From the IMG/VR virus record IMGVR_UViG_2974624538_000001, positions 46,771-110,770 of that record: a stretch of 64,000 bases of DNA, one strand, 5' to 3'. The DNA is from a virus (Duplodnaviria; Heunggongvirae; Uroviricota; Caudoviricetes). A program made the translations under genes and the position numbers. This document shows, piece by piece, positions 22,060-49,254 of the stretch. The first letter of the stretch is position 1. Each line of letters starts with the position of its first letter. The notes under the pieces are model-generated. The model was not told where the DNA came from. It saw only the letters and a program-made list of their open reading frames with translations, and ran no database searches.

Positions 22060-23676
22060 ATGTCTAATGCACTTGGTAAGTTTGCTGCTTCTCAGAAGCA
22101 GGACCGTGTTTCTACTCCTCAGACAAAGCGTACCCCTGGTCGCACGGATGAGGTAAAGAACAACGCGGGCGGGTTTGTGTTCAAGGTAGACGACAAGTCT
22201 CGCCTTGAGCGATTCCTGGTTCTTGGTACTGACAAGGGTACCTACTACGTTGGTGAGCAGAAGTTGACGGCTCAGAACATTTCCTTCCTGAAGGAGATGG
22301 TCCGTAAGGATGAGCGTCTGGTCGTGGACACTGCTGTTGACGTCTCTGTAAATGGTCGTGCGCTTAAGAATTCTCCTGCGCTCTTCGCTATGGCTACGGT
22401 TATGACGGAGGGTCAGGATAAGGCTTACGCTCGTGAGGCCGTTCAGAAGGTTGCTCGTACTTCTACCCACCTGTTCGAGTACGCACAGTACATCGATGAC
22501 CTTGGTGGTTGGGGTCGTGCAAAGCGTCGTTCTGTCGCTGAGTGGTACGAGAACAAGTCTCTGGATATGCTTGCATACCAGGCTGTCAAGTACCGTCAGA
22601 GGAATGGTTGGACGCACCGTGACCTGTTCCGTCTGTCTCATCCTCAGGGTGTGGACCAGGGCGTTGGCAACTTCATCCTTGGCAAGGACGTAGAGTCTGA
22701 GGTGGAAATTCTTAAGGGCTTCGCTGAGATGCAGTCTGCGACTTCGGTCAAGGATGTTATCAGGACGCTGGAGACTTTTAGGAACCTTCCTTGGGAGACC
22801 ATTCCTACTCAGTTCCTCAAGGACGTGAAGGTGTGGAAGACTCTCTTCTACAATGGTCAGCTTCGTGGCCAGGCTCTCATTCGTAACATCACTCGACTCG
22901 CTCGAATTGGTGCGTTTGATGACATGGTTTTCGCAACTGACTACGCGAATGCAATTGCTAACCAGGAAATGATTCAGAAGACTCGTCTTCACCCAATCAA
23001 CTTCCTGAATGCGGTTGTTGTTCACGAGTACGGTCAGATTGACCGTAACGGTTACAGCATGTGGAGTGCCGGACGTAAGAAGGATTGGAAGTCTAATGGA
23101 AAGATTGTGGATGCTCTCAATGAGGGATTCCACATGGCATTCAAGACTGTCGAGCCTTCTGGCAAGAGGACTCTCGTTGCAACTGACGTTTCTGGCTCCA
23201 TGAGTCAGAGCGCCATCGGACTTGACCTTTCTTGCGCTCAGGTTTCTGCGGCTGTTGCCATGACGGTTGCTCGCACTGAGCCTTACAGTGACATTGTTGG
23301 CTTCTCTAGCAGCATTGTTGACTTGGGCATTACCGCTAAGAGTTCTTTTGCCGACGCAATGCGTAAGGTGAGTAACAGGAACTTCGGTGGTACGGATGCG
23401 GCTGCTGCAATTAAGTACGCTGACCAGAAGGGAATTCAGGTTGACACCTTCGTTGTTATCACTGATAACGAGACGTGGGGCGGAAGCCAGAAGCCTTTCC
23501 AGGCACTTAAGCAGTACCGTCAGAAGACCGGAATTGATGCGCGTCTTGCGGTTCTCGGTGTGGCGTCTACGGACTTCACCATCGCTGACCCTACGGACCG
23601 TGGAATGATGGACTTCGTTGGTTTCGATGCAAATGCGCCTAAGGCCCTCGCGGACTTCAGCGCTGGTCGTATCTGA
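22060..23676 (+). CDS. rsr: Ro60-like ribonucleoprotein (TROVE domain plus C-terminal vWA/MIDAS), Rsr orthologue
   Basis: 538 aa; TROVE-like N-terminal region; vWA with MIDAS DVSGSM...TDNETWGG; adjacent to the Y RNA-like array. Confidence 0.8.
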   Translation: MSNALGKFAASQKQDRVSTPQTKRTPGRTDEVKNNAGGFVFKVDDKSRLERFLVLGTDKGTYYVGEQKLTAQNISFLKEMVRKDERLVVDTAVDVSVNGRALKNSPALFAMATVMTEGQDKAYAREAVQKVARTSTHLFEYAQYIDDLGGWGRAKRRSVAEWYENKSLDMLAYQAVKYRQRNGWTHRDLFRLSHPQGVDQGVGNFILGKDVESEVEILKGFAEMQSATSVKDVIRTLETFRNLPWETIPTQFLKDVKVWKTLFYNGQLRGQALIRNITRLARIGAFDDMVFATDYANAIANQEMIQKTRLHPINFLNAVVVHEYGQIDRNGYSMWSAGRKKDWKSNGKIVDALNEGFHMAFKTVEPSGKRTLVATDVSGSMSQSAIGLDLSCAQVSAAVAMTVARTEPYSDIVGFSSSIVDLGITAKSSFADAMRKVSNRNFGGTDAAAAIKYADQKGIQVDTFVVITDNETWGGSQKPFQALKQYRQKTGIDARLAVLGVASTDFTIADPTDRGMMDFVGFDANAPKALADFSAGRI

Positions 23677-27776: not shown

Positions 27777-27850
27777 GCGGTATAGCTCAGTTGGTCAGAG
27801 CGTTCCCCTCATAAGGGAAAGGCCACTGGTTCGAGTCCAGTTGCCGCTAC
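27777..27850 (+). tRNA. tRNA-Met(CAT), elongator type
   Basis: acceptor GGCGGTA/TGCCGCT, anticodon arm TTCCC-CTCATAA-GGGAA, T ACTGG-TTCGAGT-CCAGT. Confidence 0.65.
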
Positions 27851-29250: not shown

Positions 29251-29325
29251 TCCCTCGTAGCTCAATGGCAGAGCAGAGAGCTGTTAACTCTAAGGTTGTT
29301 GGTTCGAGTCCAGCCGGGGGAGCCA
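29251..29325 (+). tRNA. tRNA-Asn(GTT), CCA encoded
   Basis: acceptor TCCCTCG/CGGGGGA, D GCTC-AATGGCA-GAGC, anticodon arm GAGAG-CTGTTAA-CTCTA, 3' GCCA. Confidence 0.75.
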
Positions 29326-30127: not shown

Positions 30128-30223
30128 ACTTTACAAGACACGGGGGCTTGGCCCGTCCCCCAATCATGAGTCTTGGGCTCTCGTCCATAGAGAGTTTATA
30201 GTTAACGGGCCTGCCAAGCTATG

Positions 30224-30393
30224 AGAATCAAAAAGGGCCGGGTGTATGAAATTGAGCCTGGTGGAAGAGCATATGAAATTCTGAATGATGATGAAATTAT
30301 CTATCTAAAGGACCTTCAGTCTGGTAAGATTGTTCAGAGATTTAGAGGACAACTAAAAACTGACCACATTCGTGATAAGCGACGTGGCGAATA
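30224..30393 (+). CDS. hypothetical small protein (57 aa)
   Basis: ATG directly after GCCAAGCT; stop codon abuts the tmRNA 5' end. Confidence 0.3.
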
Positions 30394-30661
30394 AGGGCCT
30401 GCTTGGTTTCGACTTTGCTGGACGGGATATAGACGCAACCCTTCTTGGTCAAAGAAGTAAAACGGGCCAAAACAATAGATGCAAATTCTAACTTTGCTCT
30501 CGCTGCGTAAGTAGCCGGATTTGTCGGGAACCTTGGAACAGAATCCCGACTAGACAAAATGTGTAGATAATGTGTAAGACCCTTCAGTGTGATTGACAAT
30601 GGTTGTAGAACGGATATATGCTAGATAGTGAAGGACAGGGGTTCGACTCCCCTCAGGTCCA
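30394..30661 (+). ncRNA. ssrA: tmRNA (SsrA), tag peptide (A)ANSNFALAA
   Basis: 5' GGGCCTGCTTGGTTTCGAC and 3' GGTTCGACTCCCCTCAGGTCCA form a tRNA-Ala-like acceptor with G3:U70; internal frame GCA AAT TCT AAC TTT GCT CTC GCT GCG TAA (30481-30510) encodes ANSNFALAA-stop. Confidence 0.75.
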
Positions 30662-30678
30662 CACAGAAAGATACGGTA

Positions 30679-30852
30679 ATGAAAGTAACTAATCTATATA
30701 TCTACGGTAACAGCGATTACCTACGTAGACTGGAAGAAGATTACGTGTTCATGGGTAGACAGGTGAGGCTAGAAGATGATAGGCTTATCGTATTCGCTCT
30801 CCCAAAGAAGAGGCGGAAGAAGTCTCCCAGCAAGCAGCGTCGTAGGCGTTGA
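30679..30852 (+). CDS. hypothetical small basic protein
   Basis: internal ATG of the 30628 ORF chosen to avoid overlapping the tmRNA 3' end; Lys/Arg-rich tail. Confidence 0.3.
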   Translation: MKVTNLYIYGNSDYLRRLEEDYVFMGRQVRLEDDRLIVFALPKKRRKKSPSKQRRRR

Positions 30853-31576
30853 CAGGCAGGGTTGGAACCTGCTAGAGTATGACTAAGAGGTCAGGCAGTC
30901 GGACAAGGCTTAGGCGGATGAGAGTAGTTCAAGCGGTGGTAACTTAAATGCCCACTTAATGATGCTCAACAAGCCGGTGGGATGCGAGTGGACTAGTCCT
31001 GACCTTTTAAGCTTGCAAGGTTCAGAGCAGATTAATCGCCAACGTAGGATAGCGTAGGTTGCCTTGCAGAGGCCCGAGGAGTAGGATGTGGGTAGGCAGT
31101 CGGAGCCGTTGCGTATGCGGCGGGGTTAGCGACGTGTAGGGTCTCAAGCTTCAATCTGTGGATAACGAAAGGGGTCCGGCGTTCTGTGAACTGGCAGTCG
31201 GGTAGCCTGGCATGATACAATAAGCCTCTAGCGGGGCTAGTCACCCAAGAGTAAAGTTCATTGAGGGTGAGCAGATTGAAAACATGGTTGCGAGAGGGCC
31301 AACGGGTATGCTAAGGTGGTGTACAACACCGAAGCGCAAAGGAGATAGGGGCACCAAGTAAATGGGTGCTGTGTATCGCAACCAAGCTTTGCAGCAAGCA
31401 GGCCAAACGCTATAGACAGGGATACAAGGTTCTGAAAAGGTAACGCCCATTTGGCAGGGTAGGAAGTTACCACCTGATGATATCCATGCTGCAACTATGG
31501 AGATGACCGGAAACTTCTCCATAAGCTTCCTTCGTAAAAGCTGTAATGTAGTAAACAAAACACGAAGGGTATTAAA

Positions 31577-35706: not shown

Positions 35707-36774
35707 ATGGTACACGTTTCGTCAATCTTCTCTGTGGATGACCTGGAGAAGGCAATTGCTGATGGTTGGGTGCGAGTTCAGACCAATGAGGACAACACCC
35801 TGTCTATTTACAATTACACTGAGGAGGCTCAGTATAAGCGTTACTGGAATGAGGTAACGCTGAATTGCCGTGGCTTGATTCTCGACAACTACATGCACGT
35901 CGTTGCCCGTCCTTGGAAGAAGTTTTTCAATTTCGGTGAGCGGCCTCTTCTTTTCAGCACTGACACTCCGGTTGAGGTGACGGACAAGAAGGATGGCAGT
36001 CTTGGCATTCTTTATCGACACCCGATGACTGGCGATTATCGAATCGCTACGCGAGGGTCTTTCCTTTCGGAGCAGGCTCTTCACGCAACGGATGTCTGGA
36101 ATGACAAGTATTCCCATATTGCTCAGCCGTGGGATGGAGTGACTTTCTTGTTCGAGATTGTGTATCCCGAGAACCGAATTGTTTTGAACTATGGTGAGAT
36201 GGATGACCTTATCCTTCTCGGTGCGGTTCACAATCAGTACGGTTGGTATTACGGTCCGAACGAGACTGCCGGGATGCTCAACTGGACTGGTCCAGTCACG
36301 GAGGTCTTTGAGTACCGCACCACGAACGACTGCTTCAAGGTGCATCGCTCAAATGCTGAGGGTCTGGTAATTCGGGCGGGCAGCGAGATGGTCAAGATGA
36401 AGCAGGAGGACTACGTAGCTTTGCACAAGCTGGTTACGGGTCTTAATGAGCGAGCAGTCTGGGAGCGCTTGAAGGATGGTGAGAGCCGTGCTAGTATCTG
36501 TTCAGCACTACCGGATGAGTTCCACGACTTTGTTGACAGGGTTGCAGATGACCTAGAGGCTCAGTTCAAGGAGATTTACCACAGTTCACACGTGGACTAT
36601 TGTAAGATTCTGAACAAGATGCCTGGCAAGTCTTCTATGGCTCAGAGTGAATGGCGAAAGCTATTCGCTTCGTATGCGACAAAGATGCCCAACTATGACC
36701 TTATCTTCAACTACTTGGACAACCGACCGGTTGCTGAGTCGATTTGGAAGATGATTCGTCCGAAGGGTGAGTAA
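35707..36774 (+). CDS. ATP-dependent RNA ligase (Rnl family, T4 Rnl-like)
   Basis: nucleotidyltransferase motif I TDKKDGSLG (KxDG), motif FEIVYPENRIV; 355 aa; followed by a polynucleotide kinase. Confidence 0.6.
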   Translation: MVHVSSIFSVDDLEKAIADGWVRVQTNEDNTLSIYNYTEEAQYKRYWNEVTLNCRGLILDNYMHVVARPWKKFFNFGERPLLFSTDTPVEVTDKKDGSLGILYRHPMTGDYRIATRGSFLSEQALHATDVWNDKYSHIAQPWDGVTFLFEIVYPENRIVLNYGEMDDLILLGAVHNQYGWYYGPNETAGMLNWTGPVTEVFEYRTTNDCFKVHRSNAEGLVIRAGSEMVKMKQEDYVALHKLVTGLNERAVWERLKDGESRASICSALPDEFHDFVDRVADDLEAQFKEIYHSSHVDYCKILNKMPGKSSMAQSEWRKLFASYATKMPNYDLIFNYLDNRPVAESIWKMIRPKGE

Positions 36775-36933: not shown

Positions 36934-37206
36934 ATGATGGATTACGAAAAGATTATTGATGGATATAATGACCTTCGTGAGACATGTCTTGTCATCGCTA
37001 AGCTTAACGATGAGTTGATGGGTCCAGACAGATGGTTGAAGTTTGCCATCCAAGACTCAGACATCACGTTGATGTTTACAGAGCGAGGCGTTGTGTGCTA
37101 TGGTAGTGCTTACACGACACAGACGATGGACAACGAACACTTCAGTTTCATGATTCCGTTCGAGTATCTAGAGGAGTTTGAGGCAAATGCTAGAGATGGT
37201 GATTAA
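36934..37206 (+). CDS. hypothetical protein
   Basis: ORF after hairpin+AAGCTT+GGAGG. Confidence 0.45.
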   Translation: MMDYEKIIDGYNDLRETCLVIAKLNDELMGPDRWLKFAIQDSDITLMFTERGVVCYGSAYTTQTMDNEHFSFMIPFEYLEEFEANARDGD

Positions 37207-37606
37207 TCGGGGGATTCCCGGAAGCGGTAAGTCCACGTATGCTCGAAAGTGGGTCTTGACGCCTGGTACACGACGTGCTAGGGTTAATCGTGATGACATT
37301 CGGAAGCAGCTTTATGGAGTTGATTTCGGGGTTCCGATTGAAGAGACTGTAGTTACGGCAATTGAAGACCAGATGATTCACACTCTCCTTGCAGAGGGAG
37401 TCTCGGTTATCGTTGACGACTGCAATATTTCACAGAAGTACATCAACAGATTCACCAAAATTGCTGAGCAGTATGGTGCAGAGGTGAGTGTAAACCTCAT
37501 CAATGTTGACCTTCAGACAGCAATCAACAGGAATCAGGGCCGTGAGCGTTTTGTTCCTGTCCATGTGATTAAGCGGATGTACAAGCAACTTCAGGAGTCT
37601 CTGTGA
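37178..37606 (+). CDS. polynucleotide 5'-kinase (T4 Pnk kinase-domain-like P-loop kinase)
   Basis: GIPGSGKSTYARKW Walker A similar to the T4 Pnk N-terminus; 142 aa kinase domain only. Confidence 0.6.
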   Translation: MRQMLEMVINRGIPGSGKSTYARKWVLTPGTRRARVNRDDIRKQLYGVDFGVPIEETVVTAIEDQMIHTLLAEGVSVIVDDCNISQKYINRFTKIAEQYGAEVSVNLINVDLQTAINRNQGRERFVPVHVIKRMYKQLQESL

Positions 37607-49180: not shown

Positions 49181-49254
49181 TCCGGCGTAGTGAAATGGTA
49201 TCACGCAACTTTGCCAAAGTTGTAGCGCGAGTTCGATTCTCGTCGCCGGGACCA
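49181..49254 (+). tRNA. tRNA-Gly(GCC), CCA encoded
   Basis: acceptor TCCGGCG/CGCCGGG, D GTGA-AATGGTA-TCAC, anticodon arm CAACT-TTGCCAA-AGTTG, 3' ACCA. Confidence 0.75.

Follow-up and report, generated by a model that had tools for sequence, protein, structure and literature searches.

A reduced, single-pseudoknot tmRNA gene in the tRNA island of Streptomyces phage Gilson

The stretch of DNA analysed here (64,000 nucleotides of a Caudoviricetes genome, positions 46,771 to 110,770 of IMG/VR record IMGVR_UViG_2974624538_000001; hereafter the window) harbors at positions 30395-30661 of the plus strand a gene that, judged by its sequence, is the transfer-messenger RNA (tmRNA) gene ssrA of Streptomyces phage Gilson, with the tag peptide ANSNFALAA. 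Its product is probably a functional but minimised one-piece tmRNA, which would follow the trans-translation scheme and add to the ribosome-rescue capacity of the infected cell. The gene is already known, because it carries a GenBank feature, tmRNAs of related clusters have been published (one per genome in clusters BE1 and BE2; PMC5764925, PMC13191466) and tmRNA genes were found in 402 of 18,146 genomes (~2%) in a phage survey (PMC9004378), the class being well documented in actinobacteriophages. The present analysis adds, in a descriptive manner, the reduced architecture with a single pseudoknot and the full dependence on the host, and describes no new kind of system.

Identification of the tmRNA gene

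Across the region, identity to Streptomyces phage Gilson (NC_048742.1) is 100%. Gilson is a siphovirus with a 128 kb genome (Stanwilliamsviridae, Loccivirinae, Gilsonvirus), and its record positions are converted to window positions by subtracting 46770. NC_048742.1 holds a feature of type tmRNA, gene 136, at 77165-77432 (window 30395-30662), yet 'Hypothetical Protein' is entered, wrongly, as its product. The same product entry for a tmRNA recurs in the records of Moab, Muntaha, Wakanda and Limpid. In the sister phages Emma1919, Forrest, Jada, Kenrey, Phredrick, Patelgo and MeganTheeKilla 'Tag peptide: ANSNFALAA*' is annotated.

ARAGORN calls a tmRNA with the tag ANSNFALAA at 30395-30662, and the Rfam family RF00023 matches over the full model (positions 1-374) with 82.5 bits (E=1.8e-30), well over the gathering score of 47. 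Since both the ARAGORN call and a match so far above threshold are found, the assignment is not a chance result. Together with the GenBank annotation they bear out the original prediction, made from the letters alone, of a phage-encoded tmRNA with this tag. The predicted start at 30394 was off by one, as this position is the final A of an upstream TAA; the stop codon (30392-30394) does directly precede base 1 of the RNA at 30395, so that the 5′ end abuts a small open reading frame (ORF) as had been described. The remark that no long ORF occupies the region stands only in part: a mechanically called ORF of 85 amino acids with a TTG start runs over 30342-30599 on the opposite strand, but it is unannotated and antisense, is oriented against all genes annotated in the window and lies across the covarying RNA.

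Architecture of the RNA

The elements of the RNA are listed below, with RNA numbering in which position 1 corresponds to window position 30395.

30395-30401, plus strand: 5′ strand of the acceptor stem P1, GGGCCUG, holding G3 of the alanine identity pair G3:U70 (RNA 1-7 with 260-266; pairs with 30654-30660)
30402-30412, plus strand: D-loop analogue CUUGGUUUCGA (RNA 8-18), in which GG.UUCGAC is invariant in the alignment A1 described below
30413-30440, plus strand: 5′ strand of helix P2 according to the Rfam alignment (P2a 30413-30420, P2b 30424-30435, P2c 30436-30440)
30441-30469, plus strand: pseudoknot PK1, with stem 1 CUUCU/AGAAG (RNA 47-51/59-63) and stem 2 UGGUC/GGCCA (RNA 52-56/71-75)
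30470-30480, plus strand: single-stranded A-rich stretch AAACAAUAGAU preceding the resume codon (RNA 76-86), host-like (host AAACAAUAAUC)
30481-30510, plus strand: tag frame with resume codon GCA, ANSNFALAA and stop codon UAA (RNA 87-116), as called by ARAGORN
30498-30519, plus strand: helix H5 with the stop codon inside a GUAA loop (RNA 104-125), from the minimum free energy (MFE) fold
30523-30550, plus strand: hairpin H6, GUCGGGA/UCCCGAC (RNA 129-156, loop 136-149), with the invariant loop CCUNGGAACAGAA at 30531-30543
30551-30600, plus strand: linker in place of PK3 and PK4 (RNA 157-206), conserved in sequence (UGUGNAGAUAAUGUG..AAGACC..AGUGUGAUUGAC)
30601-30633, plus strand: 3′ strand of helix P2, from the Rfam alignment and covariation
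30637-30653, plus strand: T-arm AGGGG/CCCCU with the loop UUCGACU (RNA 243-259)
30654-30662, plus strand: 3′ strand of the acceptor stem, CAGGUCC, with discriminator A at 30661 (RNA 267) and C74 at 30662 (RNA 268)

The tRNA-like domain combines a D-loop analogue lacking a D stem with a GGUUCGAnUCC-type T-loop, and the D-loop analogue shares GGUUUCGAC unchanged with the tmRNA of the Streptomyces host. The tRNA-Ala-like acceptor stem with G3:U70 that had been predicted is formed by GGGCCUG (30395-30401) and CAGGUCC (30654-30660) followed by the discriminator A, and the predicted T-loop TTCGACT is found as UUCGACU at 30642-30648. The bases past C74 are ACA, hence the CCA end is not encoded. Helix P2 is made up of the segments P2a (RNA 19-26/232-239), P2b (30-41/217-228), which carries a tandem G-A mismatch, and P2c (42-46/207-211). 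The internal frame of the original prediction reads GCA AAU UCU AAC UUU GCU CUC GCU GCG UAA at 30481-30510 and does encode ANSNFALAA followed by a stop codon.

Among the four canonical pseudoknots PK1 is present, while PK2, PK3 and PK4 are not there; H6 occupies the place of PK2, and the predicted fold has PK2-PK4 replaced as a whole by this hairpin and the linker of ~50 nt. In the Rfam alignment PK2-PK4 are nearly deleted (8+8 nt versus 32+55 consensus positions, at low posterior probabilities). These pseudoknots are typical of one-piece tmRNAs but variable and not essential, and in E. coli tmRNA unstructured RNA can replace them with tagging in vitro kept. Being typical rather than defining, their loss leaves the membership of the Gilson RNA among the tmRNAs intact.

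Two candidate structures in this part of the molecule were rejected. A pseudoknot between the H6 loop and the linker was sought by hand as complementarity in all relatives, but the short matches seen, such as CUAGG/CUUAG in Sham, do not persist in Gilson, Francob or Faust. Within the 50-nt linker only mini-hairpins of 3 bp were found, with inconsistent support.

Conservation and covariation in related phages

Eleven homologues from phages of five genera, 70-99% identical, were gathered and give, together with Gilson, twelve aligned sequences; the RF00023 scores of the eleven range from 76.8 to 93.1 bits. The MAFFT alignment (A1) was compared with 500 column shuffles and with controls in which the 3′ partners were slid by 1-3 columns. 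For 39 pairs from P1, P2a-c, PK1 stem 1 and the T-arm, 98.5% of the cells are paired and 14 pairs are compensated among the 12 phages, a score matched by none of the 500 shuffles, while the slid controls are 41-50% paired. The acceptor stem is fully paired (100%) in all twelve phages with compensatory changes in three of its seven pairs. G3:U70 is GU in 12 of 12, whereas the adjoining acceptor pairs swap (GC/CG/AU, CG/UA and AU/UA/CG). Helix P2 has 22 pairs in three segments, which are 94-100% paired with seven pairs compensated, and the T-arm stem is 100% paired with two of five pairs compensatory. The discriminator A73 and C74 are invariant in all twelve phages, and position 75 is never C.

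PK1 and H6 are rich in insertions and deletions and were aligned separately with N-padding of the loops; in these alignments, which were fitted to the structure and lean towards it, the two stems of PK1 show 98.6% of cells paired with 6 of 11 pairs compensatory (slid controls 28-55%), and for the H6 stem 92.9% of cells are paired, five of the seven pairs being compensatory. All 12 phages have the same H6 loop. The stop codon lies in the hairpin loop of the H5 equivalents in all relatives, as seen in a poorly aligned region without formal pair count. Relatives with RNAs of 295-298 nt possess H7, an extra covarying hairpin 3′ of H6, which is not present in the Gilson group. The acceptor stem, the T-arm and the tag frame singled out by the original prediction are conserved in related phages of five genera, with compensatory and synonymous changes.

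These data bear on the question of whether the gene could be a relic, i.e. a non-functional fragment of a host tmRNA left behind by imprecise excision or as the remnant of an integration site. It is common for prophages to use ssrA as an integration site and to take along its 3′ end; in records of Mycobacterium abscessus prophages the match is to the 3′ 60 nt only, and ~110 nt have been lost relative to the host tmRNA. The Gilson gene, however, extends without truncation from base 1 to the discriminator and covaries across five genera, it contains no long stretch identical to host ssrA that would be usable as an attachment core, and the Gilson genome has no annotated integrase. The compensatory changes largely refute an origin as a relic, to which we assign next to no probability.

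The tag peptide

The tags of the lineage are ANSNFALAA, ANSRNAFALAA, ANSMNASAFALAA, ANSKNASAYALAA and ANYKNASAYALAA, with the tag of BillNye, ADNIDAEYEALCAEYALVTV, as an outlier that is acidic and has a non-ALAA ending. In the ALAA codons all changes are synonymous (Ala GCU/GCC, Leu CUC/CUU/CUA, Ala GCU/GCA/GCG, Ala GCG), and the stop codon in the relatives is UAA or UGA. This pattern indicates that selection acts on the peptide itself, beyond the RNA. We regard the tag as a host-type degron that has been shortened and is kept by purifying selection, which speaks for tagging as a real event.

Conservation of the message domain is also what speaks against a decoy, in which the reduced RNA titrates host SmpB or outcompetes the host tmRNA and thereby blocks or redirects host trans-translation. 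Such a role finds a parallel in mycobacteriophage DS6A, whose tmRNA consists of nearly the tRNA-like domain only and resembles molecules that inhibit tmRNA, perhaps by SmpB titration (PMC4131195), and would agree with a phage without its own SmpB. A pure decoy, however, needs none of the message domain, which in Gilson is complete, with resume context, tag codons and the helix holding the stop codon in its loop conserved and with synonymous-only change in ALAA. We therefore regard a decoy as quite improbable.

An interrupted tmRNA gene in phage TunaTartare

In TunaTartare (NC_070784.1) the tmRNA gene (~80158-80936; 591-1369 of the stretch examined) is interrupted by an endonuclease gene. The insert is an ORF of 498 nt for an HNH/endonuclease VII (773-1270 of that stretch), located exactly at the site of the optional H7; with its stop codon it overlaps the conserved linker. 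The tRNA-like domain, P2, PK1, the tag ANYKNASAYALAA, H5 and H6 are intact, with 50.5 bits for RF00023 over 779 nt, and H6 provides another compensated stem with the loop GCAUAGGAACAGAA. This tmRNA is missed by ARAGORN, and NC_070784.1 annotates no tmRNA. A group I or group II intron as the interrupting element was considered and rejected, since no Rfam match was obtained at E<0.01.

Host dependence, processing and proposed function

No SmpB was detected in the complete 128-kb Gilson genome, neither by tblastn with E. coli and six Streptomyces/Kitasatospora queries (best E=0.39) nor with an SmpB profile against all 1,523 Gilson ORF segments (best E=1.7), and none is annotated. When all phage records were searched with E. 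coli SmpB by tblastn, 68 were found to contain SmpB, and the organism groups listed for them include no phage of Streptomyces or Mycobacterium. The SmpB-contacting motifs in the tRNA-like domain of the Gilson tmRNA match those of the host, and the host loci carry smpB. The genome annotation of Gilson includes no CCA-adding enzyme. As a phage SmpB, an encoded CCA and a CCA-adding enzyme are all missing, and on the basis of established tmRNA biology, the Gilson tmRNA would need the alanyl-tRNA synthetase, SmpB, EF-Tu, RNase P and CCA-adding enzyme of the host.

The gene lies inside a long rightward gene array, in a 32-kb island with 31 tRNA genes (window 18212-50424). A promoter and terminator scan around it gave counts equal to chance. 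There is zero spacing between the upstream stop codon and the tmRNA; in Muntaha, zero spacing is found between a tRNA-Arg gene and the tmRNA instead. With zero spacing at the 5′ end and 16 nt to the next ORF, we infer that the tRNA-processing machinery cuts the tmRNA out of a polycistronic transcript. Position 74 is C in the tmRNA and in each of the 31 tRNA genes (chance 0.25^31), and a full CCA is encoded only by tRNA-Asn (29251-29325) and tRNA-Gly(gcc) (49181-49254). The universal C74 suggests a shared rule of 3′-end processing, by which C75-A76 would be added by the host enzyme.

In the proposed scheme the long rightward transcript would be cut, with RNase P setting the 5′ end just after the upstream stop codon and the 3′ end being trimmed to A73-C74 as in the phage tRNAs. 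The host CCA-adding enzyme would then finish the 3′ end and the host alanyl-tRNA synthetase would charge the RNA with alanine, upon which host SmpB and EF-Tu would bring it to ribosomes that have stalled on mRNAs which are broken or lack a stop codon. The ribosome would move to the tag frame, add ANSNFALAA, terminate and be recycled, and the tagged fragment would be passed to host Clp proteases. The most likely benefit would be extra ribosome-rescue capacity during infection, while host mRNA is destroyed or RNAs are cut by toxins or nucleases, which fits the presence of 31 tRNA genes, an RNA ligase, a kinase and a Ro60 protein around the tmRNA gene.

Several observations weigh against a functional tmRNA with this scheme. 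The BillNye tag implies that degradation tagging is not shared by the whole lineage. No conserved pairing partner of the H6 loop CCUNGGAACAGAA was found on manual inspection of the relatives. The MFE of the whole RNA is no better than that of shuffled sequences (z=-0.69) and lends no thermodynamic support, although this is expected and uninformative because the RNA is pseudoknotted. Finally, the literature searched contains no experiment on any phage tmRNA, only hypotheses (PMC9004378, PMC7162821). A functional, minimised tmRNA is nevertheless the reading we favor. Message domain conservation and covariation leave both a pure decoy and a relic a poor fit.

A variant of it, with the same mechanism and another selective reason, is that the phage RNA serves as a spare part, replacing host tmRNA that has been cleaved or inactivated by host toxins or abortive-infection nucleases. 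To our knowledge, no Streptomyces nuclease targeting tmRNA has been described, which counts against such a role. In addition, the tag region, which would be the target of ribosome-dependent cleavage of the HigB type, is the most host-like part of the molecule. Outside the functional core, on the other hand, the phage RNA differs from that of the host nearly everywhere (46% versus 59% GC), which could remove nuclease sites, and the gene resides in the tRNA island alongside a T4 Rnl1-type RNA ligase and a kinase. Cleavage of tmRNA has been reported for a mycobacterial HigB toxin (PMC3912914), and the large tRNA set of cluster BE1 has been proposed to counter tRNA-degrading defences (PMC5764925). 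Such a spare part would have its counterpart in the role proposed for the phage tRNAs with RNA ligase and kinase. We consider it possible but rather doubtful as the specific reason, the confidence placed in it overlapping with that in the general reading, of which it is a special case.

The minimised tmRNA could be studied in a small and genetically tractable system of SEA-PHAGES isolates on Streptomyces, which makes it a reasonable place to address phage tmRNA function.

Flanking open reading frames

The tmRNA gene is flanked by two small ORFs.

30221-30394, plus strand: small upstream ORF of 57 amino acids (50 amino acids from GTG 30242 as annotated in Gilson), the stop codon of which touches the tmRNA 5′ end
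30679-30852, plus strand: conserved downstream ORF of 57 amino acids, beginning 16 nt past the tmRNA, a linked neighbour rather than a proven part of the system

The upstream ORF is found in the closest relatives only and has no Pfam or PHROG match. The downstream ORF begins 13-17 nt past the tmRNA in every relative and is present in 38 Streptomyces phage records, which equals the number of records with a tmRNA match. In Blueeyedbeauty it is present but unannotated. The protein is lineage-restricted, with 36 protein clusters that are all at least 68% identical, and is predicted by AlphaFold2 to consist of a beta-alpha-beta-beta core (pLDDT ~95) and a basic, disordered C-terminal tail of variable sequence. 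It has no Pfam or PHROG family, only close homologues among 5.8 billion proteins, and no fold match (best Foldseek match in the PDB at E=0.4).

Strict adjacency and co-occurrence would be compatible with a phage-specific ribosome-rescue module of tmRNA and downstream protein. Speculatively, the protein would bind the tmRNA, perhaps at the partnerless H6 loop, and could stabilise the RNA in replacement of the lost pseudoknots or alter its engagement of host SmpB and ribosomes. As both observations come from one syntenic lineage, for which shared ancestry alone suffices, such a module is judged very unlikely.

Other features of the tRNA island

An unannotated structured RNA of ~116 nt is located at window 30889-31008 on the plus strand, 240 nt 3′ of the tmRNA. 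Its long terminal stem, GGUCAGGCAGUC/GACUAGUCCUGACC followed by UUUU, is wholly different in sequence among the phages with the pairing kept, and two phage subfamilies share its core (30900-30991) at 77-99% identity. Of 35 predicted pairs, 93.3% of cells are paired and 13 pairs are compensated, which none of 500 shuffles matches, with slid controls at 34-55%. This RNA has no Rfam match at E<5 and is unannotated in every record examined. A promoter-like TTGACA-18-TAGAGT is found near it at 30849-30878, and in Wofford and Tomas it comes after tRNA-Arg(tcg) within the tRNA island. Further parts of the ORF-free gap 30853-31576 (724 bp) match non-coding stretches of other Streptomyces phages, namely 31067-31142 (plus strand; ~80% identical to Navo, Anedea and Riptide) and 31157-31273 (plus strand; 84.6% identical to LuckySocke).

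The gene product gp106 (window 22060-23676, plus strand) bears just the annotation 'RNA-binding protein' and is orthologous to Ro60 (Pfam vWA_Ro60 E=3.4e-56, TROVE E=1.5e-36). Ro60 homologues are found in 357 phage records, including 212 of Mycobacterium and 115 of Streptomyces phages, and these Ro60-rich host groups are the ones that supply the tmRNA matches. Phage Y RNAs are known from mycobacteriophage ET08 (PMC4201824). The downstream structured RNA is Y-RNA-like in shape and the phage encodes Ro60; a link between the two, whose loci are 7 kb apart, is only a guess.

Junctions with zero spacing occur at 27850/27851, 27925/27926, 27998/27999, 28812/28813, 29648/29649, 48974/48975 and 30394/30395. 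They comprise tRNA-tRNA junctions (Met-Met-Phe and His-Cys) as well as junctions of tRNA-Phe, tRNA-Arg(tcg) and tRNA-Glu(ttc) with the ATG of the next annotated ORF, and the one at which the upstream stop codon meets the tmRNA. These junctions look like tRNA punctuation of polycistronic transcripts, which would free leaderless mRNAs and leave one mRNA ending at its stop codon. In the record of Sham the tRNA adjacent to the tmRNA is labelled tRNA-Pro(cct), where ARAGORN reports tRNA-Arg(cct).

The island also contains the T4 Rnl1-type RNA ligase (RNA_lig_T4_1, E=3.5e-14; window 35707-36774, plus strand) and the AAA_33 kinase (E=8e-20; window 37187-37606, plus strand), for which the annotation reads polynucleotide kinase. 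The record annotates another RNA ligase at its positions 102455-103102. The two ligases and the kinase look like a tRNA-repair set.

Comparison with host and other phage tmRNAs

In order to compare the Gilson tmRNA with that of the host, many Streptomyces ssrA loci were collected by a pattern scan of bacterial genomes. The host tmRNAs have a length of 367-388 nt and a GC content of ~59%, compared to 267 nt and 46% in Gilson, and their tags (ANSKRDSSAFALAA, ANTKRDSFALAA and ANSKSDSRVFALAA) contain 12-14 residues compared to the nine of ANSNFALAA. Common to both are the tag opening ANS/ANT, the ending FALAA and the stop codon in the H5 loop, furthermore the D-loop analogue with GGUUUCGAC, the GGUUCGAnUCC T-loop, G3:U70, the discriminator A, P2 and PK1, as well as the AAACAAUA context 5′ of the resume codon. 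Only three stretches can be aligned between Gilson and host, namely the tRNA-like domain, the stretch preceding the resume codon (Gilson AAACAAUAGAU-GCA, host AAACAAUAAUC-GCC) and the tag end with H5 (Gilson UUUGCUCUCGCUGCGUAAGUAGC, host UUCGCCCUCGCUGCCUAAUUAGC), and the Gilson tag resembles a host tag that has lost its middle. Whereas the one-piece tmRNA of the host contains PK2-PK4, that of Gilson has hairpin H6 and the linker instead. Host ssrA adjoins smpB; the Gilson gene has no smpB neighbour and sits, unlike that of the host, in a phage tRNA island with ORFs abutting on both sides.

Sister Streptomyces phages of the Stanwilliamsviridae, subfamily Loccivirinae, genera Gilsonvirus, Wakandavirus, Annadreamyvirus, Faustvirus and Wilnyevirus share the locus, the architecture and the invariant H6 loop, with tmRNA and tags given in GenBank. 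Within this set the RNAs of the Gilson group are the shortest (268 nt by ARAGORN), with the shortest tag and without H7.

The cluster C mycobacteriophages (Bxz1, ET08, Rizal and others) and the BE1/BE2 Streptomyces phages are likewise large and tRNA-rich and possess tmRNA and Ro60 (PMC4131195, PMC5764925, PMC13191466). The BLAST match of mycobacteriophage tmRNA genes to Gilson is limited to a region of 31 nt at the T-arm, and the tags of cluster C are long and acidic and end in ALV (e.g. ATDTDATVTDAEIEAFFAEEAAALV). No BE1/BE2 tmRNA is among the matches listed in a distant blastn search. The tmRNA-like gene of mycobacteriophage DS6A is phage-borne and reduced as well, comprises little beyond the tRNA-like domain and is regarded as inhibitory (PMC4131195). 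Unlike DS6A, Gilson has retained PK1 together with the tag frame and H5, and its naturally minimised, PK1-only tmRNA constitutes a natural experiment on which parts of a tmRNA are dispensable.

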